Below, in pieces: positions 8,226 to 54,798 of a stretch of DNA of 64,000 nucleotides. The translations under genes were made by a program, and so were the position numbers. The notes beneath the pieces are model-generated. The model was not told the origin of the DNA, did no database searches, and saw only the letters and a program-made list of their open reading frames with translations. Source of the DNA: Escherichia coli (GTDB lineage Bacteria > Pseudomonadota > Gammaproteobacteria > Enterobacterales > Enterobacteriaceae); the NCBI RefSeq assembly GCF_965641715.1, contig NZ_OZ282453.1; one strand, 5' to 3'. Within the stretch, counting starts at the first letter, position 1; the number at the start of each line of letters is the position of its first letter.

Positions 8226-8741
<516 letters not shown>

Positions 8742-17885: not shown

Positions 17886-17889
17886 GGAT

Positions 17890-37923: not shown

Positions 37924-38172
37924 AGCAGAATCCTTCTGGATAAATAACTTTCCCCTGTTTGGGGTCCATCCCTCTTCTCCCTGCGCGCTAACTAAGTAAT
38001 ATGATTCTATTTACCCCTAACGGCCCCTCAAGAACCACAACCAACGGAGTACACAAAAAGCTAATCAACTACGCTACGCAATAAAAAACCCGCCGAAGCG
38101 GGTTAAGTGCGGGTGCGTTGAGGATGCCTGACACATCAGAGGTGGCGAGGGATTTCTCCCCCGCCAGGTCTC

Positions 38173-38328: not shown

Positions 38329-38385
38329 AGACTGCTCCTCCTTGCCTTTCGGCACGTAAGAGGCTAACCTATGTGTGTAGAGCAT
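38173..38385 (-). CDS. mok: Mok (overlapping reading frame that couples hok translation)
   Basis: 70 aa ORF MLYTHRLASYVPKGKEEQSMKQQ... extending upstream in the hok frame, as in hok/mok/sok loci. Confidence 0.6.
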   Translation of the reverse strand: MLYTHRLASYVPKGKEEQSMKQQKAMLIALIVICLTVIVTALVTRKDLCEVRIRTGQTEVAVFTAYEPEE

Positions 38386-38400
38386 AGATATGGCCTCAGA
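38330..38400 (+). ncRNA. sok: Predicted Sok-like antisense RNA region (boundaries not determined)
   Basis: Inferred from the hok/mok architecture only; not mapped by sequence. Confidence 0.3.
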
Positions 38401-38699
38401 TTAATGTTAAGCGTCTTGCAGGACGCGTAATGTTAACTGGGGCTTTTCTCTGTCTGCCTTACAGTGGCATGCCCGAGGCAGACAGCCTCAAGCACCCGCA
38501 GCTATTCTACTTAACTATCCTTTTCCCGCAAATCGTTTTATCCTCAACGCAAATTTCACCAATCCCCCCCCAACTCGTGTCCCTTACCCTCAGGCTGTTT
38601 CCCTCTTTACACAGAAGATAATTAATGTATTGTTTTTTACAAACAATCAGTTAAGAGCTATCTGTGGGTGGAGTCGCCTTGCGGTAGCTTTTCCTTTTA

Positions 38700-38750
38700 T
38701 GCATTGCACACATACATGCTCTAATATATTCCTATATATTCAAAAGGACT
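38700..38750 (+). promoter_or_regulatory. Putative promoter and RBS of the two-gene cassette
   Basis: AT-rich region with TTGCAC and TAATAT/TATATT hexamers (spacing not ideal) and AAGGA 7 nt upstream of ATG 38755. Confidence 0.3.
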
Positions 38751-38754
38751 TTTC

Positions 38755-39687
38755 ATGCACAGCGTTAACTTCTATTCATTCCGTGTGTTAACCCACAAGG
38801 GCAGCCGAACCAGCAAAAGACTAAACAACCTAGGTTTAGGCGATAAAAAAACAGCATATGAATTATTTGTTGAGTATTTTAATAACTATAAAAACACACC
38901 TATTGAATTTGGTCTCTCGAAAACAAAGGTTTCTCTTGAACAACACACATCACTCACCTTTGATGCTCAAAACCAAGTAATATATGGATATGTAAAGGTT
39001 GGAAAATATGGTGAGAGCAGTGAAATAAAAGACGATAAACTTACTAAAATACGTTATACAACAACTATCAACGATGTAACTCTCAAACAGCGTTACATTT
39101 TAATATTTTTGCCTGACAATTTAGAAGAAGGGATTATAGCATTTCACGCTAATGACAATATTTCTGCTCGCAGCACACTCTCTGATGCATTACTAGACCA
39201 CTTGAAGACAAAATATAAACTTGAAGCGAGAATCAATCCCCTTTGCCACAAAAAAATCCCCCAACACATCCTTGATTCAGAATTAAAACAAATAAAAGCC
39301 CAAGGTTACAAAGCACCAAAGGACATCACGGATGCATTCGGAAATAACAAAACAAACATCAAAACTGATTTGGTAATAAAATCAAATCAAGGCGTATTTG
39401 GTAGTTTTAAAGACTTAAAAGACAAAAAACTAGGAAATATAATAGAAATAATTGAAGATAAGTGTGACGCAATAAAAGTTAGTTTACAATTAGGCAATAG
39501 AACAGTCATTTTTAATTACGACACCATCTTAAGAAAAGGAATTTCTGCCGAATTAGATGATAACGACTTAAACATAAACGCATCTACAGGAATCCCCGAT
39601 CTTAAAGCACTTCATGACACTGTTAAAATCATTGCGAATGATATACTAAGTGAGTTACATAGTGGTAATGGGGGAGTAAAAATATGA
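38755..39687 (+). CDS. Hypothetical 310 aa soluble protein, first gene of an AT-rich two-gene cassette (candidate phage-defence or exclusion component)
   Basis: ORF MHSVNFYSFRVLTHKGSRTSKRLNNLGLGDKK...; Lys/Asn/Ile-rich; no TM helices; no motif I can assign; stop overlaps the start of the next gene (ATGA). Confidence 0.6.
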   Translation: MHSVNFYSFRVLTHKGSRTSKRLNNLGLGDKKTAYELFVEYFNNYKNTPIEFGLSKTKVSLEQHTSLTFDAQNQVIYGYVKVGKYGESSEIKDDKLTKIRYTTTINDVTLKQRYILIFLPDNLEEGIIAFHANDNISARSTLSDALLDHLKTKYKLEARINPLCHKKIPQHILDSELKQIKAQGYKAPKDITDAFGNNKTNIKTDLVIKSNQGVFGSFKDLKDKKLGNIIEIIEDKCDAIKVSLQLGNRTVIFNYDTILRKGISAELDDNDLNINASTGIPDLKALHDTVKIIANDILSELHSGNGGVKI

Positions 39688-40238
39688 ACAAGATTAACGT
39701 AATGAGTGTAATAAAAAAACATTACACAACAATGTCGGATCAACGCGGAAATATTTTACTCGAAGACATCGCAATACACTTCATCATTCCTCTTACATTA
39801 TCATTAATCATATGTTTTACCTATGGGATAATGAAAACCTCTATCGCATCTGTTTTTGTTAACTTTGGAGCAATTACTACCGCGCTGTTAATGAGCGCGG
39901 TTATTATGATCTACGATCAAAAACAAAAAACTGCATTTAAAATTTCAGACATTGAGGAAAACAACAAACCACGTTCAAATCTAATAATTTTAAATAATAA
40001 TAAAACCGTATATGAGCAATTATGTCACAATGTTTCTTATGCCATATTAACATCTGTAGCGTTAGTTATTTTTTCGGTTGCGATATATTTTCTCCCAGAA
40101 ACCCCAAGTGAATTAAAAAAATGGTATTTCGCAACCCCTGCTTACATAATCAGTTATTTAGCATACTCATCCTTCTTTTTTACCGTAGTAACATTCTTGA
40201 TGGTTATAAAAAGATTTAGCACAATATTAGATAGTTAA
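39684..40238 (+). CDS. Hypothetical 184 aa integral membrane protein (four predicted TM helices), second gene of the cassette
   Basis: Hydrophobic segments IAIHFIIPLTLSLIICFTYGI, IASVFVNFGAITTALLMSAVIMIY, VSYAILTSVALVIFSVAIYFL, YIISYLAYSSFFFTVVTFLMVI; translationally coupled to the upstream gene. Confidence 0.6.
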   Translation: MNKINVMSVIKKHYTTMSDQRGNILLEDIAIHFIIPLTLSLIICFTYGIMKTSIASVFVNFGAITTALLMSAVIMIYDQKQKTAFKISDIEENNKPRSNLIILNNNKTVYEQLCHNVSYAILTSVALVIFSVAIYFLPETPSELKKWYFATPAYIISYLAYSSFFFTVVTFLMVIKRFSTILDS

Positions 40239-40249
40239 ACAATGGAACC

Positions 40250-40280
40250 GCCGCCCTTTCGGGCGGCTTCCTGATTTTCT
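40250..40280 (+). terminator. Rho-independent terminator after the cassette
   Basis: Hairpin gccgccc-tttc-gggcggc followed by ttcctgatttt. Confidence 0.65.
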
Positions 40281-40335
40281 GAGGGTGCAGAAATCCCTCC
40301 TGTTAAGGATTAATTTTTAGCAGTGCTAAATTTAA

Positions 40336-40692
40336 TTATTCAGTTCTGGATTTTGTCGCCCTGCGTATCCGCGCTTTCGCGTTACGCTCAATCTGAATTA
40401 GCTTTTCTATATTTTTTCGCCTTTCCCGTTCCTCCTTGCGCAATAGTCTTACATCATCTGCCAGTCTGGTTTCTCTTTTCGCCACAGAGAGCATCCAGTC
40501 AAATGGCTCCACAACTGCACCGCAGATTTTACAGCGGACCTGACGCTCTTTTTCGTCACCCCGGACAGAGGCGTGATGACAATATGGTCTTTCCGATGGC
40601 TCATAAAGAAAATTAACCTGATTACGTGGGTCATCCTCTTTTACCGGAAATAAAACAATATTACTTAACTCATCTTCTGGTTTTATTTCCAT
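40336..40692 (-). CDS. Hypothetical phage protein with a Cys/His cluster (possible zinc ribbon)
   Basis: ORF 40336..40734; probable start MEIKPEDEL...; contains CHH...CKIC. Confidence 0.4.
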   Translation of the reverse strand: MEIKPEDELSNIVLFPVKEDDPRNQVNFLYEPSERPYCHHASVRGDEKERQVRCKICGAVVEPFDWMLSVAKRETRLADDVRLLRKEERERRKNIEKLIQIERNAKARIRRATKSRTE

Positions 40693-40696
40693 GCTC

Positions 40697-41284
40697 CTAT
40701 CCTTTGATACGAATGCCAGCGGCGCGGGAATCATTCCATCGCTTTACTTCTTCACGAATTACGTCAATGCATTCTTTCGAATCCATTAGGTAATCTTCAT
40801 CAAAAAGACGTTCCTGTTCGTTTTCTATCGCAACAATGATTGCTTCAACTAACTTTTGTGCCTGAGAATCACTTTCTAACTCTGCTATGCGCTTACTCCC
40901 ATCCGAGATAACACCTTCGTAATACTCACGCTGCTCGTTGAGTTTTGATTTTGTCTCCTCAAGCTCAACACGCAGCTTCCCTACCGTTAGCGCAATTTCC
41001 TCGTTCTCCTGGTCGCGGCGTTTGATGTATTGCTGGTTTCTTTCCCGTTCGTCCAGTAGTGCCTGTACTACTTCAGGGTTGAAAGCTGCGATATAACGAG
41101 CGTTGTTCTCTGCGTTTTTCTGTTCGTCGAATCCAGGCCAGTCGACAATATCTCCGTGATGATTATCTCTAGGTGTGTGCACGGCGTACGTGCCGTATTT
41201 GCCCGGCGAAATAAATGCGACCCATTCGCCCTGTGTTGCCTGTTTTGCTAGCTCACGCAGTGCCTGATAGTCAATTTTGCTCAC
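40697..41284 (-). CDS. Ea22-like early phage protein
   Basis: 195 aa MSKIDYQALRELAKQATQGEWVAF... with coiled-coil middle; resembles the ead/Ea22 family of lambdoid prophages. Confidence 0.6.
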   Translation of the reverse strand: MSKIDYQALRELAKQATQGEWVAFISPGKYGTYAVHTPRDNHHGDIVDWPGFDEQKNAENNARYIAAFNPEVVQALLDERERNQQYIKRRDQENEEIALTVGKLRVELEETKSKLNEQREYYEGVISDGSKRIAELESDSQAQKLVEAIIVAIENEQERLFDEDYLMDSKECIDVIREEVKRWNDSRAAGIRIKG

Positions 41285-41505
41285 TCTTCATCCTCCAAGT
41301 CGGCAACGGCGTCCATCACATCAGAACCGCGAATAATCTCAAAAGCACGGCAGGCCATTTGAAATACCAGTTGCTCTTGCGGATGCGGTGATTCCCAATA
41401 TTTGAACCCAGGGCGATGCGCGTACCCCATCATGGTATAAAAATCGCCAGCAAGTTCAATCGCGGCATCAACAAGTTCGCGATTTGTCATCGTCTGTTCT
41501 GTCAT
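41281..41505 (-). CDS. Hypothetical phage protein (74 aa)
   Basis: ORF in operon context, overlapping its neighbours by 4 nt. Confidence 0.4.
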   Translation of the reverse strand: MTEQTMTNRELVDAAIELAGDFYTMMGYAHRPGFKYWESPHPQEQLVFQMACRAFEIIRGSDVMDAVADLEDEE

Positions 41506-41777
41506 TTGGTTTTCTCCTGTCTGAACATCATGATCATCAGGTCGCCTTTTGCCGTTATCCTGACTGTTGTGCCTGGCTCTATGCTGCTAAGGTCAAATGC
41601 ATCATAGAATTCATTCAACGCTTTCTGGCGCCTCTCCTGTTTGCGTCGCTTTTCCCACTGCTTCAGATAAACAGAGATCGCCCAACTCCCCGCGCTGAAC
41701 ATGATGTAACACCAACCAAGCAGCGCCAGACCTGTGTTGAGGACCGTATCAATCGTTATTGTTGTATCGATATTCAC
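41502..41777 (-). CDS. Hypothetical small membrane protein (91 aa)
   Basis: One hydrophobic helix LALLGWCYIMFSAGSWAISVYL; operon context. Confidence 0.4.
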   Translation of the reverse strand: MNIDTTITIDTVLNTGLALLGWCYIMFSAGSWAISVYLKQWEKRRKQERRQKALNEFYDAFDLSSIEPGTTVRITAKGDLMIMMFRQEKTK

Positions 41778-42211
41778 TGCGCTGCCTCCTGAAAGTATCC
41801 TCGATAAAACGCCAGCACGCGCTGCATAACCTCACTATTCCGGCACTCGCGACAGATTATGTTCTGTCGTCTGTTGTAACGACGTATTTCTCCGTCTGGT
41901 AATGACCAGATAAGGTCAGGATCAACCACAACCGATTTCTTCACCTTTGCCCTTGATAGTTTTTTGCGGGCGTTTTGCCAGTCTTTACGCGCCTGCTCAG
42001 ACGGTAATAATCCGTAGCCTGAATTGTAAACATCACCACTGGCGACCAGTTCTCTGGCGAGAGTGCTTATGTAATACCTTGATGCACCGGTTTTAGCCTC
42101 CAGAGCCCGTAACGTCTCGCGACCGCTCAGACGTACAAGTTCAACAACCTGCCCTTTAATTTTTTCCCGCTCTTCTGGTGTAAATACTTTTGCCATAAGC
42201 GCCTCCGGCAA
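41774..42211 (-). CDS. Hypothetical phage protein (145 aa)
   Basis: ORF in the early-right operon; probable start at MAKVFT. Confidence 0.4.
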   Translation of the reverse strand: MPEALMAKVFTPEEREKIKGQVVELVRLSGRETLRALEAKTGASRYYISTLARELVASGDVYNSGYGLLPSEQARKDWQNARKKLSRAKVKKSVVVDPDLIWSLPDGEIRRYNRRQNIICRECRNSEVMQRVLAFYRGYFQEAAQ

Positions 42212-42973
42212 TCACTTTTCCGATACAACACGGCGGGAAGAATCAGTAATCTGTCGAACAATATCCCGGTGCTTGTTCAGCTCCCGCAGCGCGGCGCAGA
42301 CTCGCTCCCACTTCTGAACATGATTTTTCGCCCGACGCAATTCGCGGTTTGCCATATGCAGCGATGGTAAAACCAGGTCATCCGCTCGCGTTTCAGTAAA
42401 CGATGGCAGCGACTGCACAATGTCCGCCACAGTTTCTGTTTTAATATCTTCCTGTGTTGCAGCCTCCTGTACTGGTAACGCAACACCTGCGGGCTGAGGA
42501 AAGGCCTTACCATCAGTTTCCGCTACCGATGCTGCTTTCGGCTCTGCTGGTAAATTATCGCCCGGTATGCAGTAACGAAATTTACCGCCCTGATTTACGC
42601 GAATCAGACGACCTTTGCTGATTGCCATTGCCAGCATTGAAGCCACTTTGCGTGATGCGGTACCAAACAATGTAGCCAGCTCATCAGCCGTTTGTGGTCC
42701 GCGTTGTTCAATCGTCGCGGTTAAATCGCACTCTGATATTTTCGCTACTGTTGCTGTGGTGGTTTCTTCCGGCAGTTCTGCCTGCGCTGGCTGTTCCTGC
42801 TGAACGTTGTTATCAGCCACACGCCAGGTGTACGCACTTTTATCAACAAAACCAGCCTTTTTCAGCTCCCATAGTTCGTTCAGCACTTCTTCACGACTGA
42901 TATCAAGTCGCGCAGCAAGTTCTATGGATGTGGCTTTTCCCATTGCTTTCAGTGCGTCAAAAACAGTCTCCAT
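42212..42973 (-). CDS. ydaW: YdaW-like protein (DUF1627-like)
   Basis: 253 aa ORF directly downstream of ydaV, as in Rac; predicted N-terminal winged helix. Confidence 0.5.
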
Positions 42974-42994
42974 TAAATTTTCTCCCGGTAAAAA

Positions 42995-43741
42995 TTACTT
43001 CGCAATTCCTGGCTGGACGACATTCGGACGCCAGCTCTCCCAGTTAAAATTCACCCATCGCCCGCCGTTCATGGTCATGCGATCCATAATCCGCTCGCCG
43101 AGCAATGTTTTCATGGCCTCATAGTTCAGGTTTGTCAGCATTCCCACGCTACGCATCGACGCTGTCCGTCGATCAATAATCTGGTGCAGTACCACCTGCT
43201 CGTTTTTCGTCTCGCGCTGAATGCCAATTTCATCAAGAACCAGCAGATCCACTTCGCACAGTTCCCGCAAAAATTTTTCGCCTGACTGCCCGTCGTCATA
43301 GCTGGCGTGGAGGGCACTCATAACATCAGCCACGGTAACCACAATCACTGTCTGACCGTCTTTCAGCAGGCGATTCCCGATAGCTGCTGCTAAGTGGTTC
43401 TTCCCGGTACCAGGTTTTCCGCTAAACGCGAAATTTGTGCATCCGGTAACCAGTTCGTCAGCGATAGATTTCGCCAGACTCAACGCGTATCGCTGGCCGT
43501 CGTTCTGCACCTGGTAATTCGCAAACGAGCATTTACGGTGCAACGGCTGGATGCCTGAGCGATTCAGAATTTTTTCCACCCGCAACTGGCGATTCAGGCG
43601 GTTGATCTCCTCGCTACGTTTCTGGCCTTCAGCAAGTTGCCACTCGCGCCACTCCGCTACCGTTCTGAATGGGGCAGTTACATGTGGTGGGGTCAGTCTG
43701 CGGATACGCTCCAGAACGCCTCCTGTCGCAATATTTTTCAT
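42995..43741 (-). CDS. ydaV: DnaC-like replication protein (helicase loader, AAA+)
   Basis: 248 aa with Walker A GKPGTGKNHLA and Walker B LLVLDEIG; matches Rac YdaV. Confidence 0.9.
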   Translation of the reverse strand: MKNIATGGVLERIRRLTPPHVTAPFRTVAEWREWQLAEGQKRSEEINRLNRQLRVEKILNRSGIQPLHRKCSFANYQVQNDGQRYALSLAKSIADELVTGCTNFAFSGKPGTGKNHLAAAIGNRLLKDGQTVIVVTVADVMSALHASYDDGQSGEKFLRELCEVDLLVLDEIGIQRETKNEQVVLHQIIDRRTASMRSVGMLTNLNYEAMKTLLGERIMDRMTMNGGRWVNFNWESWRPNVVQPGIAK

Positions 43742-43747
43742 GGTCTG

Positions 43748-44536
43748 TTACCCCCTGAAGCCTGGCGGGATCGCACTATCCGGTAACGAAACGGTGTTAA
43801 CCTGTCGGAGTAACGTCTCAGGTCGAACACCTTTCGGCGCGAACAAGCCCTGGTATTCATTAGCAATGCTGTGTCGAATCACCTGCTCAGGTGAAAAACC
43901 CTGCTGGCGGAATTTTTCCAGCTCTCGTATCGCCCCGTTAGCGCCCTGCTCCGTTCGAATCGGTTTTCGCAATGCCTGCCTGAACTGAACCCACTCATGC
44001 CAGAGTGTTTCCGGCAACCAGTCAGGCAGCTCGATAGCCTCCGGCTCGAATTTTTTAGACGCTCGTTTTTGGCGAAGGGGATTTAGGGGGAGATCAGTAT
44101 TTATATCTTCCTCTTCCTCTTCCTCTGGTAACGCTTTTTGATCCGTTTGTGTAACGCTGCCAGCGTTACCTTTTCGTTTCAGTTCGCGTATTTTTGTAAC
44201 TCGCTCGTTTGTAACCGCCCGTTTTTTAGAGCTTTTTCCGTTATGACGTTCAAAGTTAGGTAGAGAAAGCCCACCGTCATTTTCGACCAGCCATCCAACC
44301 TGAATTAACGCATCAGCAAAACCAGCCATAAAAGTGATGCGATCTATTGCACTTTTTGTAACGCCGCGAGCGTTACAATCTGCATTACCGTCTATCATTT
44401 GTTGATCCGCCCATGCCCAGAAGCGAATAACCTTCCCTAATGCGGCATCTGGATCAATATTCAGAATCTCAGCAAGCCTGAATATTTCCGGCTTATCCGG
44501 CGTAATAACTTCGAGCTTTATCCAGTTTGAAGCCAT
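43748..44536 (-). CDS. ydaU: Replication initiation protein YdaU-like (DUF1376)
   Basis: 262 aa MASNWIKLEVITPDKPEIFRLAEILNIDPDAALGKV...; Rac gene order; contains the palindromic repeats listed below. Confidence 0.8.
   Translation of the reverse strand: MASNWIKLEVITPDKPEIFRLAEILNIDPDAALGKVIRFWAWADQQMIDGNADCNARGVTKSAIDRITFMAGFADALIQVGWLVENDGGLSLPNFERHNGKSSKKRAVTNERVTKIRELKRKGNAGSVTQTDQKALPEEEEEEDINTDLPLNPLRQKRASKKFEPEAIELPDWLPETLWHEWVQFRQALRKPIRTEQGANGAIRELEKFRQQGFSPEQVIRHSIANEYQGLFAPKGVRPETLLRQVNTVSLPDSAIPPGFRG
44151..44169. repeat. 19-bp palindrome GTAACGCTGCCAGCGTTAC (copy 1 of 3)
   Basis: Perfect inverted repeat; related copies at 44358 and 44550. Confidence 0.8.
44358..44376. repeat. 19-bp palindrome GTAACGCCGCGAGCGTTAC (copy 2 of 3)
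   Basis: Same half-sites GTAACGC / GCGTTAC. Confidence 0.8.
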
Positions 44537-44549
44537 TTGTTTTCACCTT

Positions 44550-44568
44550 GTAACGCTCGCAGCGTTAC
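44550..44568. repeat. 19-bp palindrome GTAACGCTCGCAGCGTTAC (copy 3 of 3), just upstream of the ydaU start
   Basis: Same half-sites; lies in the ydaT-ydaU intergenic region. Confidence 0.8.
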
Positions 44569-44613
44569 ATTTAACTGATACCGAACAAAACAGTCCGGCA
44601 CGATTAATTTCAA

Positions 44614-45036
44614 TCAATGCACTACAACAGAATCGCCAGGCGACCCGCCGCCGCTGAAATGTGCTTTACGGTAAACGGCCTGGACTGCATCATCATGCGC
44701 ATCAATTGCCGTACTCAACGCTTCCTGCGCCGCCAGTAATGCACGGCGTTCCAGGGTATCGAAGATGCAGAGTCGGTGACGCAGCTCGCGCGGAAGAATT
44801 GCCAGAACCGCAGGGATCAGTGTCTGAATTTTTTCCCTTTGCGCTTTCGTTTCGCCTTTCAACCAGCGGTGATAGATGTTCTGCTGATTGTTCCAGTCCT
44901 TGCCTGGTACCAGCGGCAATTCGCCGCCCCCCTGGCGCAGATATTCTTCAGTAATTGCATTAGCTACCCACGCCTGCCCTTTTTCGGCTGCCAGGGCTAA
45001 CAACACTGATTCGATGTGCTCATGCCTGATTTTCAT
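44614..45036 (-). CDS. ydaT: YdaT-like protein (Rac toxic early protein)
   Basis: 140 aa MKIRHEHIESVLLALAAEKGQAWVANAITEEYLRQ...; length and position match Rac YdaT. Confidence 0.8.
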   Translation of the reverse strand: MKIRHEHIESVLLALAAEKGQAWVANAITEEYLRQGGGELPLVPGKDWNNQQNIYHRWLKGETKAQREKIQTLIPAVLAILPRELRHRLCIFDTLERRALLAAQEALSTAIDAHDDAVQAVYRKAHFSGGGSPGDSVVVH

Positions 45037-45322
45037 GAATCAACTCCTGTGCATTTTGTGTGTTAGCCTTGCATCCAACAGGTAAACCGTCGGTTGGGTT
45101 CGGGTAGATATCAGGCCGGAGTTCATGAGGTGTAACCTCGAAATTCGTAGCCTCTGCGATACGCAATACCTTTTCAGGGCTTAACTGACTACGTCCAGTA
45201 GCAACGAGGCTAATCATTGATTGCGAACAACCAGCCAGCGCGGCCAAACAAGACTGTCGTACACGATTTTTTTTCAAATATTCATCTAATGTCATAAGGG
45301 TCACCTTAGTAATGCTTACCAA
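45020..45322 (-). CDS. ydaS: Cro-like HTH regulator YdaS
   Basis: About 100 aa HTH protein divergent from racR; start may be the internal Met (MTLDEYLKK...). Confidence 0.75.
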   Translation of the reverse strand: MVSITKVTLMTLDEYLKKNRVRQSCLAALAGCSQSMISLVATGRSQLSPEKVLRIAEATNFEVTPHELRPDIYPNPTDGLPVGCKANTQNAQELIHENQA

Positions 45323-45399
45323 AATATTAACTATATTAATTTAAATGATCAACACCTATATCAGTTTGAGATTATGAGCTGTATTCATAAGATGGTGAT
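45323..45399. promoter_or_regulatory. Divergent promoter/operator region between ydaS and racR
   Basis: AT-rich intergenic segment with palindromic elements (ttaactatattaatttaa) between divergent regulator genes. Confidence 0.55.
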
Positions 45400-45864
45400 A
45401 TGAGAAGAAAACGCGAAGAAATCGCATCGCCGGAAGCTACGCAACGTCTGCGCGCAATCTGGGATGCAAAAAAGAGAGAGCTCAAACTGACTCAGGAGCT
45501 TGCTGCCGAGCTAATGGGTTTTGAGGCGCAATCTGCGGTTAGCCATTATCTCAACGGAAAGGCTCCACTTAATACTGATGCGGCATTAAAATTCGCTGTA
45601 TTACTAAGAGTTAAGCCTGAAGAGTTGAGGCCTGATTTAGCTGATCTGATGAATTACGTCCGTTCCTCAGGAACTTATGACGAAAGTTTCGAAGGCGAAG
45701 GTTGGCGGATGGTTAACAAGCAACAGGCTGATTTACTGGACCTTTTTGATATCCTTCCCGAATCAGAAAAAGCAAAACTAATCGAAAGGCTTAAAGGCCA
45801 GAATGAACTCTACAAAGAAGCGTTTGAAAATATGCTGGCAGCTCAAAAACGCATGAAGAAATAG
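45400..45864 (+). CDS. racR: Prophage repressor RacR-like (XRE-family HTH)
   Basis: 154 aa with HTH (LTQELAAELMGFEAQSAVSHYLNGK); divergent from ydaS/ydaT as in Rac. Confidence 0.8.
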   Translation: MRRKREEIASPEATQRLRAIWDAKKRELKLTQELAAELMGFEAQSAVSHYLNGKAPLNTDAALKFAVLLRVKPEELRPDLADLMNYVRSSGTYDESFEGEGWRMVNKQQADLLDLFDILPESEKAKLIERLKGQNELYKEAFENMLAAQKRMKK

Positions 45865-45883
45865 CTCCCACCACCTCGTAACT

Positions 45884-45909
45884 AAACCGCCATTTTTGGC
45901 GGTTTTTTT
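45884..45909 (+). terminator. Rho-independent terminator after racR
   Basis: Hairpin ccgcc-attttt-ggcgg followed by tttttttg. Confidence 0.7.
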
Positions 45910-46128
45910 GTCCCCTCCGCCCGTCCCCGCCTTACTTTTTATCAAAAAAACACTAAAAATTTCATTAGGATAGTACATTTTTATCAACAAAATGCATATT
46001 TGTGTTGATCATTAATATGAACATAACTAATATTATTACAGAAGCAGCACGGCGCTGTAGGTTTTAGTTCCGCCACCCGGCGTTAAAGGGAGAGATAAAA
46101 TGGTGCTTACGAAGTAGTTCAGTATTTG

Positions 46129-46233
46129 ATGGATTGTTGCGGTATCACTTACAGCCAAGCTGTACAGGCTTTACGCTGCAACGACTGGGATCTCTGGCAG
46201 GCAGAAGCCGCTATACGCAGCAACAAGATGTGA
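46129..46233 (+). CDS. Small protein (34 aa), YdaG-like by position
   Basis: ORF MDCCGITYSQAVQALRCNDWDLWQAEAAIRSNKM; not in the ORF track (short). Confidence 0.35.
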   Translation: MDCCGITYSQAVQALRCNDWDLWQAEAAIRSNKM

Positions 46234-46243
46234 TATTCGAAAA

Positions 46244-46399
46244 ATGCAAAAAATCGACCTCGGCAACAACGAATCTCTGGTATGTGGCGTGTTTCCCAAT
46301 CAGGACGGCACATTCACAGCCATGACGTATACCAAAAGCAAAACGTTTAAAACCGAAGCTGGCGCACGTCGCTGGTTGGCAATACATTCAGGTGAATAA
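46244..46399 (+). CDS. Small protein (51 aa), YdaF-like by position and length
   Basis: ORF MQKIDLGNNESLVCGVFPNQDGTFTAMTYTKSKTFKTEAGARRWLAIHSGE; not in the ORF track (short). Confidence 0.4.
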   Translation: MQKIDLGNNESLVCGVFPNQDGTFTAMTYTKSKTFKTEAGARRWLAIHSGE

Positions 46400-46400
46400 A

Positions 46401-46763
46401 ATGAACGAAACAGAATTAAAACACGTTATCGCTCTGCTTCTGGAGGATGCAAAGCGCCTCCAGCAGCTGGCCCCAAATGCAGGCACTGAAGAGCGAATTA
46501 TTATGGCTAATAAAAGTCTACATTCTGCATATGATACAAATACAAAGCAAACAGATAAAAATATTATTGTTTATGGGCACAGCGTTAACAGAGAATTTGC
46601 TTACTTTGTTCTGGAAAAATATCAACCTACATTTTGCCGGATAATAGAAGAACTAACATTAAAAGGCAAAGATAAAGAGTTTATTGAAAATGCTGTGGCA
46701 ACGGCAAGCGCAGCAGCCGTTGCCAGTATCAAATCAATGATTGCTCTAGCGATTAACCAATAA
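46401..46763 (+). CDS. Hypothetical protein (about 120 aa) at the position occupied by sieB in Rac
   Basis: ORF 46392..46763 with probable ATG at 46401; soluble and AT-rich; not similar to SieB. Confidence 0.5.
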   Translation: MNETELKHVIALLLEDAKRLQQLAPNAGTEERIIMANKSLHSAYDTNTKQTDKNIIVYGHSVNREFAYFVLEKYQPTFCRIIEELTLKGKDKEFIENAVATASAAAVASIKSMIALAINQ

Positions 46764-46920
46764 ACCCAGGGGGGATATCACGCTGAGGTGGGTTAAGAAG
46801 CTCGGTAAACACCGCTCTCAGGCGTTGAACTTCTGAAATAAAATCGGCTTCACTGCAATCCCAGCCTTTGGGGTGCTTAAGTCGCAAATATTCAAAAACT
46901 AACGAATCAATTTCATTCAT
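46753..46920 (-). CDS. Hypothetical small protein (about 55 aa), convergent with the preceding gene
   Basis: C-terminal part of ORF 46753..47124 starting MNEIDSLVFEYLRLKHPKGWDCSEADFISEVQRL...; the N-terminal extension looks spurious. Confidence 0.3.
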   Translation of the reverse strand: MNEIDSLVFEYLRLKHPKGWDCSEADFISEVQRLRAVFTELLNPPQRDIPPGFIG

Positions 46921-47338
46921 ATTGGATAGCACAATTATTCTCCTTACTAGTTGTGTGAGAACTCCAGTATACCACCGAGCCTGAAGTGGTAAAAAGACAG
47001 GCGCACAACACGAAGGCGCATTTCCGGTATCCATAAAGAGTCGGTCTTGTCTGTTAAATTTAAATGGTGGGAGTGCGCCTCCGGTTGTAAATAACAACAC
47101 TGCTGTGTGTAGTCTTGGCGGCATCAGTTTTTTCTTGAAGTTCGGCTGATGTCCGCCCTTTTTAAAGTGAATTTTGGGATGTGGTGAATGCGGCTAAGCG
47201 CACGTGGCACAGTTAAAAGTCATGTTAGTCCTTATTGGTTTGTGTGGGAAAACCGACAGTAATTGTTAACTGGTTGCAGTCACCTGGAGGCACCAGGCAC
47301 CGCATCCACAAATTTCATTTGTAAAAATGGAGATAATT

Positions 47339-47560
47339 ATGATTGCACATCACTTCGGAACTGATGAAATACCACGTCAGTGTGTGACTCCTGGCGATTA
47401 TGTTCTTCATGAAGGCCGAACATATATTGCATCGGCAAACAATATTAAAAAGCGAAAACTTTATATTCGTAATCTGACCACAAAAACATGCATTACTGAC
47501 TGCATGATTAAAGTCTTCCTCGGTCGTGATGGTTTACCCGTAAAGGCGGAGTCATGGTGA
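47339..47560 (+). CDS. kilR: KilR-like cell-division inhibitor
   Basis: 73 aa [42 protein letters not shown]...; length and position match Rac KilR. Confidence 0.7.
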
Positions 47561-47730
47561 TGACTAAGAAAATAAAATGTGCTTACCACCTTTGCAATAA
47601 AGAAATTGAAGAAAGCAAAAGTATTAAAAGACCACTTCATTTCATGCGTGGAGTTATCCCAACGACGGAAATGAAAAAATATTGTAGTAAAAGTTGTGCC
47701 GAAAAAGACCAGATGGCATACGAACTTTAA
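47560..47730 (+). CDS. ydaE: YdaE-like small zinc-binding protein (56 aa)
   Basis: [21 protein letters not shown]...KYCSKSCAEKDQMAYEL with CxxxC...CxxxC; start overlaps the kilR stop (TGATG); not in the ORF track. Confidence 0.55.
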   Translation: MTKKIKCAYHLCNKEIEESKSIKRPLHFMRGVIPTTEMKKYCSKSCAEKDQMAYEL

Positions 47731-47803
47731 TTAACTGACTATTCGAAACTGAATTTATGCCAGAAATGGCAGGGATTCACTCAACCGTAAAAAGGAAACA
47801 GCA

Positions 47804-48100
47804 ATGAACATTATTGAATGTGAAATTGAACTTGATGTCATTAACGATTCTCTCGCCGAATTTAAATGCGGGAATACATTACATGGTTTTATTCAGATTT
47901 CCCTGGAAGAAAAAGTTACGGTGATTATTGATGGCGGTTACGTTCTGGGAACATTTGATTGTTATGTATGTGCCGTTAAAGAAGTCGCATTACTCGCAGC
48001 TCGTATTGAAGAGGCCGACAAGAAATACGGTATCAGTTATCAACGACTGAAAGAACTCTCTTATATCGCATCATCAGTGCGTTTCTTTTATGCAATCTGA
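47804..48100 (+). CDS. RacC-like protein
   Basis: 98 aa ORF directly upstream of the recE remnant, as racC is in Rac. Confidence 0.45.
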   Translation: MNIIECEIELDVINDSLAEFKCGNTLHGFIQISLEEKVTVIIDGGYVLGTFDCYVCAVKEVALLAARIEEADKKYGISYQRLKELSYIASSVRFFYAI

Positions 48101-48123
48101 ATCTGCGTTGGGGTTAAAAAACA

Positions 48124-50109
48124 ATGAGCACAAAACCACTCTTCCTGTTACGGAAAGCGAAAAAATTATCCGGTGAACCTGACGTCGTCCTGTGGGCAAG
48201 CGACGATCTTGAATCGACCTGTGCCACTCTGGATTACCTGATCGTTAAGTCAGGTAAAAAACTGAGCAACTATTTTAAAGCTGTTGCTACTAATTTTCCT
48301 GTCGTTAACGACCTGCCCCCAGAAGGGGAGATCGATTTTACGTGGTGTGAACGCTATCAACTCGGCAAGGACTCAGTCACTTGGAAACTAAAACCGGGTG
48401 CAGCACCAGACAACGCTCACTATCAAGGCAATACCAACGTCAACGGCGAAGACATGACTGAGATTGAGGAGAATATGTTACTGCCGGTATCAGGTCAGAT
48501 TCTGCCTGTTCGATGGCTGGCACAGCATGGCAGCGAAAAACCGATCACACACGTTTCGCGGAGCGAACTGCGCGCATTACATAACGCACAGGATGAAAAA
48601 CTTCCCGCCGTTACCGCGCTGGCTATCTCAAATAAAGCAGCACAACTCGAACCGCTGGAAATTCGCGAGCTCCACAAACTGGTTCGTGACACTGACAAAG
48701 TTTTCCCTAATCCTAGTAATTCAGACCTGGGACTGATGACTGCTTTTTTCGAAGCATACCTGGGCGCTGACTACACCGATCGCGGTCTGCTTACAAAAGA
48801 GTGGATGAAGGGGAATCGTGTTTCACGCATCACCCGCACGGCTTCCGGTGCTAATGCTGGCGGCGGGAACCTCACCGATCGCGGCGAAGGTTTCGTCCAC
48901 GATCTGACGTCACTGGCGCGCGACGTAGCCACTGGCGTACTGGCCCGTTCAATGGATCTGGACATCTATAACCTTCATCCGGCACACGCTAAACGCATTG
49001 AGGAAATTATCGCTGAAAATAAACCGCCCTTTTCTGTTTTCCGCGACAAATTCATCACCATGCCTGGCGGGCTGGATTATTCCCGTGCCATCGTGGTTGC
49101 GTCCGTGAAAGAAGCACCAATTGGGATCGATGTCATCCCCGCGCAAGTCACTGAATATCTGAACAAAGTACTGACTGAAACCGATCATGCCAACCCTGAT
49201 CCGGAAATCGTGGATATTGCCTGCGGTCGCTCCTCTGCCCCGATGCTGCAGCGTGTAACAGAAGAAGAAAAACAGGATGATGAAGAAAAACCGCAACCAT
49301 CTTGCGCAATGGCAGATGAACAGGCAATGGCTGAAACAGTGGAACCGGATGCAACTGAACATCATCAGGACACGCAGCCGCTGGATGCTCAGTCACAGGT
49401 AAATGCTGTTGATGCGAAATATCAGAAACTGCGGACAGAACTCCATGAAGCCCGGAAAAACATTCCGTCCAAAAATCCTGTCGATGCAGACAAATTACTG
49501 GCTGCCTCTCGCGGAGAATTTGTTGAAGGGATTAGCGACCCGAATGATCCGAAATGGGTTAAGGGGATCCAGACCCACGATTCTGTGTACCAGAATCAAC
49601 CAGAAACGGAACAGAACGACCGAAAATCGGAACAGAACAGCCCAAATACGCAACAAAACGAGCCAGAAACGAAACAGCCTGAGCCAGTAGTGCAACAACT
49701 GGAAACGGAGAAAGTTTGCACCGCCTGCGGTCAGGCTGGCGGCGGCAACTGTCCTGACTGCGGCGCGGTGATGGGCGACGCAACGTATCAGAAAACCTTT
49801 AATGAAGAAAATCAGAATGAATATCAGGAAAAAGGTCTGGAGGAAATGGAAGGTGCTGAACATCCGCACAAGGAGAACGCTGGCAGCGTTCCGCATCGCG
49901 ATTGCAGTGATGAAACTGGCGAAGCAGCAGCTTCATCATTAGAAAAACTCGACTGGAAAAGACAAGTGGTGATTGCAGCGGTTTACGGTTTATGTGCGAA
50001 TCCTGCGGGTATAGCCTCAGCGCCATTAATTCCGGGTATTGCAATGATGATTGCAAACAAACTTGAAAATTTTGGGGTGACGGATGATGAGTACATGCCC
50101 AATTTTTGA
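48124..50109 (+). CDS. recE: RecE N-terminal region (truncated exonuclease VIII, lacks the C-terminal nuclease domain)
   Basis: 661 aa [46 protein letters not shown]... matches the non-catalytic N-terminal two-thirds of Rac RecE (866 aa); the frame ends where lambda gam begins. Confidence 0.8.
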
Positions 50110-50383
50110 TCGCATTGAAGAGCAGGCATGGTCACGCCACTACCAGCAAATCGTTCGCGAAGAAAAAGAAACGGCGCTGGCGGACGACCTGGAAAAAGGT
50201 CTGCCCCAGCACCTGTTTGAATCGCTCTGCATCGACCATTTGCAACGCCACGGTGCCAGCAAACAGGCAATCAGTCGCGCATTTGATGACGATGTTGAAT
50301 TTCAGGAACGCGTGGGGGAGCACATCCGGTACATGGTTGAAACCATTGCTCGTCACCAGGTTGATATTGATTCAGAGGTATAA
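50084..50383 (+). CDS. gam: Gam (RecBCD inhibitor), short form
   Basis: 99 aa ...[51 protein letters not shown]... matches lambda Gam. Confidence 0.9.
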
Positions 50384-50388
50384 AACGA

Positions 50389-51174
50389 ATGAGTACAGCA
50401 CTTGCAACACTGGCCGGGAAGCTGGCTGAACGCGTCGGCATGGATTCTGTCGACCCGCAGGAACTGATCGCCACTCTTCGCCAGACGGCATTTAAAGGTA
50501 ATGCCAGCGATGCGCAATTCATCGCGCTGCTGATCGTCGCCAACCAGTACGGACTTAATCCGTGGACGAAAGAGATTTACGCCTTCCCTGATAAGCAGAA
50601 CGGCATTGTTCCGGTGGTGGGCGTTGATGGCTGGTCCCGCATCATAAATGAAAACCAGCAGTTTGATGGCATGGACTTTGAGCAGGACAATGAATCATGT
50701 ACATGCCGGATTTACCGCAAGGACCGTAATCATCCGATCTGCGTTACCGAGTGGATGGATGAGTGCCGTCGCGAACCATTCAAAACCCGAGAAGGCAAAG
50801 AAATCATCGGACCGTGGCAGTCGCATCCCAAACGGATGTTACGGCATAAAGCCATGATTCAGTGTGCCCGTCTGGCCTTCGGATTTGCTGGTATCTATGA
50901 CAAGGATGAAGCCGAGCGCATTGTCGAAAATACCGCATGCACTGCAGAACATCAGCCGGAACGCGACATCACTCCGGTTAACGATGAAACCATGCAGGAG
51001 ATTAACACTCTGCTGATTGCCCTGGATAAAACATGGGATGACGACTTATTGCCGCTCTGTTCCCAGATATTTCGCCGCGACATTCGTGCATTGTCAGAAC
51101 TGAAACAGGCCGAAGCAGTGAAAGCTCTTGGATTCCTGAAACAGAAAGCCGCAGAGCAGAAGGTGGCAATATGA
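50389..51174 (+). CDS. bet: Bet (Red-beta single-strand annealing protein)
   Basis: 261 aa [37 protein letters not shown]... near-identical to lambda Bet. Confidence 0.97.
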
Positions 51175-51851
51175 CACCGGACATTATCCTGCAGCGTACC
51201 GGGATCGACGTGAGAGCTATCGTGCAGGGGGATGATGCGTGGCACAAATTACGGCTCGGCGTCATCACAGCTTCAGAAGTTCACAACGTGATAGCAAAAC
51301 CCCGCTCCGGAAAGAAATGGCCTGACATGAAAATGTCCTACTTCCACACCCTGCTTGCCGAGGTTTGCACCGGTGTGGCTCCGGAAATTAATGCTAAGGC
51401 GCTGGCCTGGGGAAAACAGTACGAGAACGACGCCAGAACCCTGTTTGAATTCACTTCCGGCGTGAATGTTACTGAATCCCCGATCATCTATCGCGACGAA
51501 AGTATGCGCACCGCCTGCTCTCCCGATGGTTTATGCAGTGACGGCAACGGCCTTGAGCTGAAATGCCCGTTTACCTCCCGGGATTTCATGAAGTTCCGGC
51601 TCGGTGGTTTCGAGGCCATAAAATCGGCTTACATGGCCCAGGTGCAGTACAGCATGTGGGTGACGCGAAAAGATGCCTGGTACTTTTCCAACTATGACCC
51701 GCGTATGAAGCGTGAAGGCCTGCACTATGTCGTGGTTGAGCGGGATGAAAAGTACATGGCGAGTTTTGACGAGATGGTGCCGGAGTTCATCGAAAAAATG
51801 GACGAGGCACTGGCTGAAATTGGTTTTGTATTTGGGGAGCAATGGAAATGA
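51171..51851 (+). CDS. exo: Exo (Red-alpha 5'-3' exonuclease)
   Basis: 226 aa [44 protein letters not shown]... near-identical to lambda Exo. Confidence 0.97.
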
Positions 51852-52078
51852 GCGCAGCCATAAAGCTCACAGGAGAAAAACCAGTGCTATACACAAAAGT
51901 CAAACCATGTCCGTTTTGTGGTTGTCCATCAGTAACGGTGAAAGCCATTTCAGGATATTACCGCGCAAAGTGTAACGGATGCGAATCCCGAACTGGCTAT
52001 AGTGGAAGTGAAAAAGAAGCACTCGAAAGATGGAATAAACGAACTACTGGAAATAATAATGGAGGTGTTCATGTATAA
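51842..52078 (+). CDS. lar: Lar/RalR-like restriction alleviation protein
   Basis: Small protein with zinc-finger CPFCGC...CNGC; position between exo and xis as in Rac. Confidence 0.65.
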
Positions 52079-52259
52079 AATTACCGCCACTATTGAAAAG
52101 GAAGGTGGCACTCCTACTAAATGGACAAGATATTCAAAATCTAAACTAACGAAATCAGAATGCGAAAAAATGCGCTCAGGTAAAAAAGAAGCAGGCGTTT
52201 CCAGAGAGCAGAAAGTAAAACTGATAAATTTTAATTGCGAGAAACGTCAGTCCTCGTGA
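52059..52259 (+). CDS. YdaC-like small protein
   Basis: ORF 52002..52259 with probable internal start ([17 protein letters not shown]...); Rac gene order. Confidence 0.4.
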   Translation: MEVFMYKITATIEKEGGTPTKWTRYSKSKLTKSECEKMRSGKKEAGVSREQKVKLINFNCEKRQSS

Positions 52260-52358
52260 ATTGCATTGTATTCAAATTAAAACTTCATAGCTGATTATTA
52301 ATAATCAACATCGGGCGTCAATTTCAGTCTAACATTGGCGCCTGCCAGAGGTGATGCG

Positions 52359-52574
52359 ATGGCACAAGTAATCTTTAATGAAGAGTGGATGGTTGAATAC
52401 GGCCTGATGCTTCGCACTGGTCTGGGGGCCAGACAAATTGAAGCATACCGCCAGAACTGTTGGGTGGAGGGCTTCCACTTCAAACGAGTATCTCCTTTAG
52501 GTAAGCCAGACAGCAAACGAGGGATTATCTGGTACAACTATCCAAAGATAAATCAGTTTATCAAAGATTCATGA
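52359..52574 (+). CDS. xis: Excisionase-like protein (Rac Xis/YdaQ-like)
   Basis: 71 aa [43 protein letters not shown]... immediately upstream of int. Confidence 0.7.
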
Positions 52575-52575
52575 T

Positions 52576-53811
52576 ATGTCTAAATTACCAACAGGTGTCG
52601 AGATTAGAGGTAGATACATTCGCATCTGGTTCATGTTTCGAGGAAAACGATGTCGGGAAACATTAAAAGGCTGGGAGATTACAAACAGTAATATTAAAAA
52701 GGCCGGAAATTTAAGAGCGCTGATAGTTCATGAAATAAACTCCGGTGAATTTGAGTATTTAAGACGTTTTCCCCAGTCCAGCACTGGGGCAAAAATGGTG
52801 ACAACGAGAGTCATAAAAACGTTCGGGGAGCTTTGTGATATCTGGACAAAAATTAAAGAGACAGAGTTAACAACAAACACAATGAAGAAAACGAAATCAC
52901 AATTAAAAACACTCAGAATAATAATTTGTGAAAGTACCCCGATATCACATATTCGTTATAGCGATATCTTAAACTACCGGAATGAACTGCTGCATGGAGA
53001 AACGCTTTACCTGGATAATCCAAGATCCAACAAAAAAGGAAGAACCGTGCGCACAGTTGATAACTATATCGCCCTGCTCTGTTCGCTGTTACGTTTTGCG
53101 TATCAGTCGGGATTTATATCAACCAAACCATTTGAAGGAGTAAAAAAATTACAGCGAAACAGAATAAAGCCTGATCCGTTATCTAAAACAGAATTCAATG
53201 CATTAATGGAAAGTGAAAAAGGACAGAGCCAAAACTTGTGGAAATTTGCCGTTTACTCAGGACTTCGTCACGGGGAACTGGCAGCTCTGGCGTGGGAGGA
53301 TGTGGATCTCGAAAAGGGAATAGTGAATGTCAGAAGAAACCTGACGATACTTGATATGTTCGGTCCCCCAAAAACAAATGCCGGGATCCGGACAGTAACA
53401 CTACTGCAGCCTGCTCTTGAAGCACTGAAGGAGCAATACAAACTGACCGGACATCATCGCAAAAGCGAAATCACCTTTTATCATAGGGAGTACGGCAGAA
53501 CCGAAAAGCAAAAACTGCATTTTGTTTTCATGCCCAGGATGTGTAACGGAAAACAGAAACCTTATTACTCGGTAAGCAGTTTGGGGGCAAGGTGGAATGC
53601 AACAGTAAAACGTGCTGGTATTCGCCGCCGTAATCCGTACCATACGCGGCATACTTTTGCCTGCTGGCTGTTGACGGCAGGAGCGAACCCGGCATTTATA
53701 GCCAGCCAGATGGGGCATGAAACTGCGCAGATGGTGTATGAAATTTACGGTATGTGGATTGATGACATGAACGACGAACAGGTAGCCATGTTGAATGCGC
53801 GGTTATCGTAG
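52576..53811 (+). CDS. int: Tyrosine site-specific integrase (IntR-like)
   Basis: 411 aa; C-terminal catalytic region with HxxR and Tyr (...YHTRHTFACWLL...MGHETAQMVYEIY); adjacent to the att core in ttcA. Confidence 0.93.
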   Translation: MSKLPTGVEIRGRYIRIWFMFRGKRCRETLKGWEITNSNIKKAGNLRALIVHEINSGEFEYLRRFPQSSTGAKMVTTRVIKTFGELCDIWTKIKETELTTNTMKKTKSQLKTLRIIICESTPISHIRYSDILNYRNELLHGETLYLDNPRSNKKGRTVRTVDNYIALLCSLLRFAYQSGFISTKPFEGVKKLQRNRIKPDPLSKTEFNALMESEKGQSQNLWKFAVYSGLRHGELAALAWEDVDLEKGIVNVRRNLTILDMFGPPKTNAGIRTVTLLQPALEALKEQYKLTGHHRKSEITFYHREYGRTEKQKLHFVFMPRMCNGKQKPYYSVSSLGARWNATVKRAGIRRRNPYHTRHTFACWLLTAGANPAFIASQMGHETAQMVYEIYGMWIDDMNDEQVAMLNARLS

Positions 53812-53818
53812 TTGCAAA

Positions 53819-53840
53819 GTTTGCCCCCAATTTGCCCCAT
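53819..53840. repeat. Two TTTGCCCC-type decamers next to the int-proximal att (candidate Int arm-type sites)
   Basis: gtttgccccc aatttgcccc; same motif family as 9068..9120. Confidence 0.5.
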
Positions 53841-53862
53841 TTAGTACCAGAGAACTGAAATA

Positions 53863-54798
53863 ATGCAAGAAAATCAAAAGAATACGAAGAAAGAACAATA
53901 CAATCTGAACAAATTACAAAAACGCCTGCGTCGTAACGTGGGCGAAGCCATTGCTGACTTCAATATGATTGAAGAAGGCGATCGCATCATGGTTTGCCTC
54001 TCCGGGGGTAAAGACAGCTATACCATGCTGGAGATTCTGCGCAATTTGCAGCAAAGCGCGCCAATCAATTTTTCGCTGGTGGCTGTTAACCTCGATCAAA
54101 AGCAACCGGGCTTCCCGGAACACGTTCTGCCCGAGTATCTTGAAAAGCTGGGCGTTGAGTACAAGATTGTTGAAGAGAACACTTACGGTATCGTGAAAGA
54201 GAAGATTCCAGAGGGCAAAACCACTTGCTCACTGTGTTCTCGCCTTCGTCGCGGTATTCTTTATCGTACCGCAACGGAACTGGGGGCGACGAAGATCGCG
54301 CTGGGTCACCATCGTGACGATATCCTGCAGACGCTGTTCTTAAATATGTTCTACGGCGGCAAGATGAAAGGTATGCCTCCGAAACTGATGAGCGATGATG
54401 GCAAACATATCGTTATTCGTCCGCTGGCCTACTGCCGCGAGAAAGATATTCAGCGATTTGCCGATGCAAAAGCGTTCCCGATTATTCCGTGCAACCTGTG
54501 CGGTTCACAGCCTAACCTGCAACGTCAGGTGATTGCTGACATGTTGCGTGACTGGGATAAACGTTATCCAGGGCGTATCGAGACGATGTTCAGCGCGATG
54601 CAGAATGTGGTGCCGTCGCATCTGTGCGATACCAACCTGTTCGATTTCAAAGGCATCACCCACGGTTCTGAAGTGGTTAACGGGGGTGATCTGGCGTTTG
54701 ATCGCGAAGAGATCCCACTACAACCGGCGGGCTGGCAGCCAGAAGAAGATGAAAATCAGTTGGATGAGTTACGGCTGAATGTGGTTGAAGTGAAATAA
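53863..54798 (+). CDS. ttcA: tRNA 2-thiocytidine(32) synthetase
   Basis: 311 aa with PP-loop SGGKDS and CxxC motifs; the first 8 codons are prophage-derived (see att). Confidence 0.96.
53887..53912. repeat. att core, int-proximal junction (inside the ttcA 5' end)
   Basis: Exact 26-bp repeat of 8941..8966. Confidence 0.85.

Follow-up and report, generated by a model that had tools for sequence, protein, structure and literature searches.

A Rac-like prophage rebuilds the 5' end of ttcA in Escherichia coli and probably supplies a promoter carried inside its integrase gene

The prophage and its attachment site in ttcA

The window, that is, the whole stretch of 64,000 nucleotides analyzed here, contains a Rac-like lambdoid prophage inserted near the start of ttcA, with uspF on its other side (Table 1). 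The gene set of the prophage comprises a tail fiber, RecT, a RecE-type exonuclease, YqaJ, Lar, RalA, xis, and int; the early region is of the Rac type, and the tail fiber gene is found at the far end of the element, opposite int. The catalytic domain of the integrase was recognized as PF00589 (E = 1e-22), with YHTRHT at residues 355 to 360 as its HxxR box, and the whole protein shares 99% identity with its counterpart in a Rac-type phage record. Pairs of TTTGCCCC are present on both arms of the attachment site, at 9072/9083 (plus two degenerate copies) and at 53820/53831, and are putative arm-type sites for Int; those of the P arm fall within the 5' untranslated region of ttcA. Both cores, int, and xis are intact in the window, from which excision by Int and Xis is predicted here; excision has been demonstrated for Rac of K-12 (PMC4632033).

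The ends of the prophage are marked by an exact 26-bp direct repeat, AAGAAAGAACAATACAATCTGAACAA, of which there is no third copy elsewhere in the window on either strand. By arithmetic, about 5e-7 such pairs of 26-mers would be expected by chance in 64 kb. The gene that contains the right copy encodes TtcA, as its translation includes the PP-loop domain and the motifs SGGKDS, CSLC, and CNLC, and homologues of the 311-aa product carry that name. Since its ATG is at 53863, the core begins exactly with codon 9 and ends after two bases of codon 17. The other copy, on the left, belongs to a short open reading frame located directly 3' of uspF and its terminator-like hairpin. A sequence-only reading of this DNA had placed the core inside codons 9 to 17 of ttcA, with MQENQKNT ahead of it in the resident gene and MSQNQEIS in the counterpart at 8917; the repeat and the reading frame bear out this placement, and both peptides and all the coordinates were correct. 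No inverted repeat marking a crossover point was found in the core. Both copies have a T (at 8958 and 53904, giving the synonymous codon AAT) where K-12, O157, Nissle, and the empty-site genome EA2 have a C (AAC); as the two window copies are identical at this base, the crossover point is not locatable from it.

Table 1. Features of the locus, in window coordinates.
Feature	Position	Strand	Evidence or remark
uspF	8307..8741	+	Pfam Usp; left chromosomal flank; directly upstream of ttcA in prophage-free genomes
Intrinsic-terminator-like hairpin of uspF	8749..8768	+	Terminator scan; 7-bp stem, then T run
Putative decayed Rac-type integrase fragment, native uspF-ttcA intergenic region	8774..8885	+	Local alignments, nhmmer
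Candidate pre-integration ttcA promoter	8793..8821	+	CTGACA, 17 nt, TACCAT; predicted TSS 8829
Displaced ttcA 5' stub, begins MSQNQEIS	8917..8970	+	17 codons, stop 8968-8970; same stub in K-12 (ttcC)
att core, left copy	8941..8966	+	Exact 26-bp repeat
Rac-like lambdoid prophage, 44,920 bp	8967..53886	.	Pfam, Rfam RalA; flanks contiguous in 2,486 genomes
P' arm repeats, TTTTGCCCC type, 11-nt spacing	9071..9118	+	Kept in K-12 and viral attP contigs; putative Int arm-type sites
Excisionase, XisR type, DUF1233	52335..52574	+	Pfam PF06806, E = 8.9e-21; precedes integrase
Tyrosine integrase, IntR type, 411 aa	52576..53811	+	Pfam Arm-DNA-bind_2 and Phage_integrase; intR in homologous genomes
Candidate int-embedded ttcA promoter	53615..53651	+	-35 CTGGTA 53615-53620, -10 TACCAT 53638-53643, TSS-equivalent A 53651
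P arm, two TTTGCCCC repeats 11 nt apart in int-ttcA spacer	53820..53838	+	TGCCCC pairs across genera; putative Int arm-type sites
Resident rebuilt ttcA, 311 aa	53863..54798	+	Pfam ATP_bind_3, residues 42-204
Phage-derived ttcA codons 1-8 (MQENQKNT)	53863..53886	+	Same position in contiguous attP contigs opens 17-codon mini-ORF
att core, right copy (ttcA codons 9-17)	53887..53912	+	Exact 26-bp repeat

Several other features of the window were recorded. The recombination module (48124 to 51851, plus strand) is unlike that of K-12 Rac, being made up of a 661-aa Exonuc_VIII-type protein, RecT, and a separate YqaJ-type exonuclease; the 661-aa protein lacks the C-terminal DUF3799 nuclease domain present at other loci. 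Three RNA genes of the prophage are all on the minus strand (the RalA antitoxin sRNA at 52077 to 52255, a sok-like antitoxin RNA at 38323 to 38497, and a tRNA gene at 34785 to 34856), and the flanking chromosome holds those of MicC (6688 to 6808), FnrS (56565 to 56682), and McaS (63548 to 63643). Between 7033 and 8166 (plus strand), the ompN region is split into two open reading frames of 226 and 121 aa, compared with a single ompN of 377 aa between nifJ/ydbK and uspF in other strains, which suggests that ompN may be disrupted in the window. A CxxCxxCC (YkgJ-like) open reading frame (9308 to 9637, plus strand), located some 340 nt beyond the stub at the P' end of the prophage, shares its strand with the displaced native promoter and stub, and no terminator-like site was found as far as 9300. 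The position of this frame is taken by a sitABCD-like metal ABC transporter in a related attP contig (L020, 1810 to 5259). Phage cargo may be placed so as to use the captured host promoter.

Origin and frequency of the two ttcA 5' ends

Uninterrupted attP was found in five IMG/VR contigs, in the order int, spacer, ATG with eight codons, core, and P' arm, where the ATG opens a mini-ORF of 17 codons that ends in a stop. Two of the five match the reconstituted attP of the window over 1.5 kb at about 96.7%, and one has phage genes on both sides. The contiguous attP was absent from the phage collection, in which the matches were prophage records with host flank or records cut at int. Its presence in viral contigs indicates that the start codon of ttcA, the first eight codons, and the DNA upstream of them, including the 51-bp spacer (53812 to 53862) that follows the int stop at 53811, are phage-borne. 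The TtcA sequence identical to that of the window is very common in public assemblies, and a 411-aa integrase was found 51 bp upstream of it in all 10 contexts read.

The two arrangements of the locus account for nearly all complete E. coli genomes. The reconstituted empty site (left flank, one core, and right flank, with uspF followed by ttcA) was found in 2,486 of 5,426 genomes at 95 to 99.5% identity, and the int-ttcA junction (53740 to 53890) in 2,912, always annotated as an integrase and then ttcA; together, the two classes make up 5,398 of the 5,426. The empty-site genome that was read has a TtcA starting with MSQNQEIS, preceded by DNA identical to the left junction of the window. The claim that codons 1 to 8 and the DNA ahead of them come from the phage thus agrees with the attP contigs, the empty site, and the invariable company of the integrase, and comparison with this prophage-free uspF-ttcA allele, with its MSQNQEIS start, confirmed that integration exchanges the N terminus of TtcA for MQENQKNT.

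At a threshold of 99%, the window junction has matches in about 194 complete genomes. The 5' region of the integrase was detected in 1,844 genomes, against 2,912 with the junction, so that in the roughly 1,070 junction genomes where it was not found the prophage must be at least partly decayed. Two such genomes were examined, Nissle 1917 and the ST131 strain MNCRE44 (both B2 type), in which uspF and ttcA are separated by a decayed Rac-like remnant of 2.3 kb (L024, 3798 to 6124; L025, 5798 to 8124) comprising a metal ABC permease with a frameshift, a DUF1627 fragment, and 231 bp of int that still include the promoter described below, followed by an intact ttcA. Both remnants have a single copy of the core, with the left core and the native -10 element deleted. 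With the attL copy lost, the phage-type 5' end is fixed in these strains and cannot be reversed by excision.

Some of this was already known. Liu et al. (2015, PMC4632033) showed that excision of Rac changes four N-terminal residues of TtcA, sorted strains according to whether they had Rac-like prophages, termed the excised form the ancient copy, and observed a fitness difference in carbenicillin; the exchange is repeated in the 2019 review by Ramisetty and Sudhakari (PMC6379469). Since it has been published for K-12 Rac, the N-terminal exchange, of which the window carries a common allelic form, is not new. The window prophage and K-12 Rac have in common the integration site, the MSQNQEIS stub beside uspF, the IntR/XisR pair, the spacer, the arm repeats, and the core except for one base. 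They differ in the N terminus, which is five residues away from the empty-site form in the window (MQENQKNT) and four in K-12 (MQENQQIT), and in size, as the window prophage is 44.9 kb long and retains morphogenesis genes, whereas K-12 Rac is a 23-kb remnant (23,060-bp deletion, PMC11014345). In O157:H7, which also has a prophage inserted at ttcA (PMC4632033), the comparison covered the start, the junction, and the core: the start is MQENQKNT as in the window, the junction is 98% identical, and the core differs at one synonymous base (T in the window and C in O157:H7).

The candidate ttcA promoter within int

In K-12, an operon consisting of ttcA alone (b1344) starts at 1,412,160 on the minus strand according to SMRT-Cappable-seq (PMC6131387, Supplementary Data 2). 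On NC_000913.3, an A within intR occupies this position; the ATG of ttcA follows 212 nt downstream, TACCAT precedes the A by 8 nt, and CTGGTA is found 17 nt upstream of TACCAT. The window is identical to K-12 from the -35 element to +1. In the window, the two hexamers are likewise separated by 17 nt, TACCAT is followed by 7 nt and then by the A equivalent to the transcription start site (TSS), and the whole element overlaps Int codons A347 to H356 (347 to 356). Given this identity, the same TSS is presumably used in the strain of the window. The sequence-only reading had proposed that the prophage supplies the promoter of ttcA, a proposal that the K-12 start within intR and the identical window sequence support, although they put the promoter in the integrase gene and not in the spacer.

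The TSS is documented in one K-12 data set (PMC6131387), and no second one was found in literature text, supplements, or a literature search. By consensus, the int-embedded promoter is weak: a few hundred of the approximately 320,000 combinations of position and spacer scored in the window match its position-weight score of 6.7, and a standard scan of 53300 to 54100 found neither a sigma-70-like site nor a terminator. It was comparative analysis together with the published TSS that pinpointed the promoter, as the position-weight scan alone singled out no site.

As there is no terminator between int and ttcA, read-through from xis-int may add to the ttcA transcripts. It has to be considered whether this could be the only source, with ttcA promoterless in the lysogen and its expression tracking that of the phage excision genes. 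The arrangement would allow it, since int and ttcA are co-directional, 51 bp apart, and have no terminator-like site between them, and the 3'-end tables of K-12 contain no 3' end between intR and ttcA. Yet the 5' end of the ttcA-only operon inside intR of K-12 is a capped primary end, and the strains reduced to the 231-bp int fragment, without xis or the 5' end of int, keep an intact ttcA, which makes exclusive dependence on the xis-int operon unlikely.

A separate observation concerns the first codons of ttcA. An IHF consensus, WATCAANNNNTTR, is found in codons 4 to 8 in K-12 (AATCAACAAATTA) and in the native stub (AATCAAGAAATTA) and is absent from the window allele (AATCAAAAGAATA); the positions concerned are 53872 to 53886 and 8926 to 8940 in the window and 433 to 447 in L011. 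The two phage alleles, those of K-12 and the window, differ at exactly these codons. IHF binding near the start of K-12 ttcA has been reported (PMC8407004).

Integrase relics upstream of ttcA

The native region between uspF and the stub also resembles int. Positions 8786 to 8836 can be aligned with the int coding DNA at 53608 to 53658 with 39 of 51 bases identical (43 of 51 with the integrase of another species), and with two Enterobacter loci carrying int 3' fragments upstream of ttcA the similarity reaches 112 to 118 nt. Over the int coding DNA of other loci, the alignments are 51 to 118 nt long, with z scores of 10 to 16 against 200 dinucleotide shuffles. An nhmmer profile of int 3' ends and spacers recovered the native region at E = 5.9e-6, while shuffled controls gave no match, and among the matches listed it also detected 107 of 114 other upstream regions at E ≤ 1e-3. 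When the Int protein was compared with the native region by tblastn, no significant match emerged, presumably owing to the short, frameshifted nature of the fragment.

The candidate native promoter within this fragment has the best sigma-70 score of the whole window and, in the lysogen, is attached to the stub alone. It is homologous position by position to the int-embedded one, with CTGGTA changed to CTGACA in the -35 element, and about 124 nt have been deleted between it and the ATG. Since the shared block encodes a catalytic motif in frame in the phage, descent would have gone from int to the native region. In empty-site strains, ttcA is presumably transcribed from the relic promoter. The earlier description of the sequence at 8917 as the displaced original 5' end consequently holds in part: the allele does predate integration, but it is not untouched host DNA, as its promoter region is a decayed Rac-type integrase fragment.

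To see the variation of this region, species-representative genomes were scanned for ttcA codons 9 to 21 (the att-core peptide being required), which gave at least 120 loci from Enterobacterales. Most of the loci listed have a Rac-type integrase, or its C-terminal fragment alone, ending about 54 nt before the ATG, and the first eight residues of TtcA are highly variable among them. A 14-nt block, AATCCGTACCATAC, preceded at a distance of exactly 17 nt by CTGG(T/C/A)A or CTGACA, was found in 114 of 119 evaluable loci among the matches listed; the five without it, among the same matches, were two Phytobacter and two Kosakonia loci with no trace of an integrase and a fifth locus with 168 nt of upstream sequence. 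Four further genera, picked for the similarity of their TtcA proteins and so independently of the att-core pattern (Pectobacterium, Serratia, Gibbsiella, and Buttiauxella), have the exact block and more integrase similarity with no integrase gene called upstream, and the Serratia and Gibbsiella relics include the C terminus of int and the P arm. A -35 element closer to consensus (CTGACA or CTGACT) is present in 17 of about 100 relics versus 1 of 19 intact integrases among the matches listed; these are small counts, and our statement that the element has improved is limited to the E. coli and Citrobacter allele.

The reverse direction, with the phage copying its promoter from an unaltered host sequence, the MSQNQEIS allele, would be in keeping with the MSQNQE-type starts of the two Phytobacter and two Kosakonia loci without integrase trace, and phages that rebuild their target must at some time have acquired a host-like gene end. 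However, the shared sequence encodes the catalytic box of the integrase, in frame in the phage, the similarity of the native region to int runs for 112 to 118 nt into further integrase codons, and the Serratia and Gibbsiella relics include the int C terminus and the P arm. We therefore regard copying from the host as unlikely.

The block AATCCGTACCATAC encodes N353-P-Y-H-T of Int, the beginning of the HxxR catalytic box, so its preservation could reflect the protein. Among 14 ttcA-targeting integrases with less than 95% mutual nucleotide identity, a single codon is used at each of V344, K345, A347, I349, and N353 to H356, whereas other invariant residues of the same integrases (e.g., L366, G369, V387, and L406) use three to five codons. 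A search for related loci with the window Int returned only integrases that were 99 to 100% identical, and annotated paralogues from the phage collection were taken as the control: in six of these, which use other att sites (933W, phiP27, and others; 40 to 44% identical), the motif region is kept, the codons vary freely, and there is no TACCAT. The same stretch stands out in 67 short relics from distinct contexts, in which identity to the consensus of intact int is 0.98 in the block, mostly 0.7 to 0.9 from about -44 to +1, and 0.41 and 0.47 in the flanks, bearing in mind that relic detection is biased to the most conserved part of int. In these alignments, the conserved stretch from -44 to +1 matches the extent of a promoter.

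These data bear on the view that the block has no promoter function and owes its conservation to constraint on the catalytic protein combined with recent loss of the prophages. It does encode part of the HxxR box, and profile searches favor just this part of int. Nevertheless, synonymous sites are frozen in the block and free at other invariant residues, paralogues with the same motif vary its codons, frameless relics retain the block at 98% identity between flanks of about 45%, and the TSS is 8 nt downstream of the block; protein constraint alone is very unlikely to produce this pattern. As for a promoter in the 51-bp spacer, either TTGAAT (53791)-18 nt-CAAAGT or TTGCCC (53832)-18 nt-TGAAAT, these are the best or near-best weak matches near the ATG in the position-weight scan, but with their poor -10 hexamers, missed by the standard scan, the K-12 TSS 212 nt upstream, and a spacer mostly taken up by the TTTGCCCC pair, the idea is hardly credible.

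Tyr355 is always encoded by TAC in intact integrases (53638 to 53640 in the window), although the synonymous TAT would give a better -10 element, TATCAT; TATCAT or TATTAT appeared in just four relics among loci L030 to L135, from Rahnella, Rouxiella, and Ewingella. A -10 hexamer would require neither invariance over 14 nt nor TAC; another constraint may therefore act on the block.

Proposed history of the ttcA promoter

We give a probability of about 0.8 to an account that joins Rac-like integration at ttcA, a rebuilt 5' end, a promoter embedded in int, and a displaced promoter that is homologous to it within a decayed int fragment. A Rac-like temperate phage would integrate by site-specific recombination, catalyzed by its tyrosine recombinase, at the 26-bp core formed by codons 9 to 17. 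The int side of attP would bring the 51-bp spacer (with the P arm, its two arm-type repeats, and a weak ribosome-binding site), the ATG, and eight in-frame codons, so that integration would yield a full-length ttcA of 311 aa starting with MQENQKNT and leave the MSQNQEIS end of the host 45 kb away as a 17-codon stub. The rebuilt gene would be transcribed from the sigma-70-type promoter in integrase codons 347 to 356, 212 nt upstream of the ATG, and the transcript would reach ttcA through the P arm after traversing the 3' end of int. The displaced host promoter would itself lie in an integrase fragment of about 110 nt, decayed after an earlier integration, with its -35 element improved to CTGACA and a leader of about 88 nt. 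As the native promoter is homologous to the int-embedded one, integration would swap one phage-derived promoter and N terminus for a younger homologue.

The position of the ttcA promoter is not discussed in PMC4632033 or PMC6379469, nor do these mention integrase-derived DNA in the empty-site allele. Three points appear to be new, namely, that the promoter is located in int, that its codons are frozen, and that the empty-site allele is a relic; they are based on comparative evidence and one published TSS. The closest parallel is found in e14 and phage 21 at icd, where the phage also brings a substitute end for the target gene, which stays intact, and leaves a displaced pseudo-copy; they replace the 3' end of icd, whereas the window prophage replaces the 5' end of ttcA with its translation start and promoter (PMC6379469 and general background). 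With a replaced 3' end, no promoter needs to be supplied. In lambda, the P arm of attP overlaps the end of int, and arm-type repeats are present on both arms. Lambda and the window prophage are therefore alike in that DNA of the recombination site and integrase coding sequence share one stretch; to our knowledge, no host gene is transcribed from within lambda int.

Extended to the order, the data lead us to favor, with moderate confidence, the view that in much of Enterobacterales the ttcA promoter is a domesticated fragment of a phage integrase: Rac-type phages would write a promoter into the codons of the catalytic box, thereby keeping the split host gene expressed, and upon decay of the prophage selection would preserve just an island of about 45 nt, the "prophage-free" allele of E. 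coli included. If so, each new integration replaces one phage-derived promoter and N terminus by another, and the short "integrase pseudogenes" upstream of ttcA are functional regulatory DNA. In E. coli, ttcA lies behind a phage-type junction in about 54% of complete genomes. Curing of Rac would alter the -35 hexamer in addition to four to five amino acids and shorten the ttcA leader from 212 to about 88 nt, a change that bears on the published phenotypes of Rac-cured strains. The locus offers a testable case of a promoter that overlaps the catalytic codons of a recombinase and outlasts the gene as a relic, with relevance for the annotation of integrase "pseudogene" fragments beside host genes.
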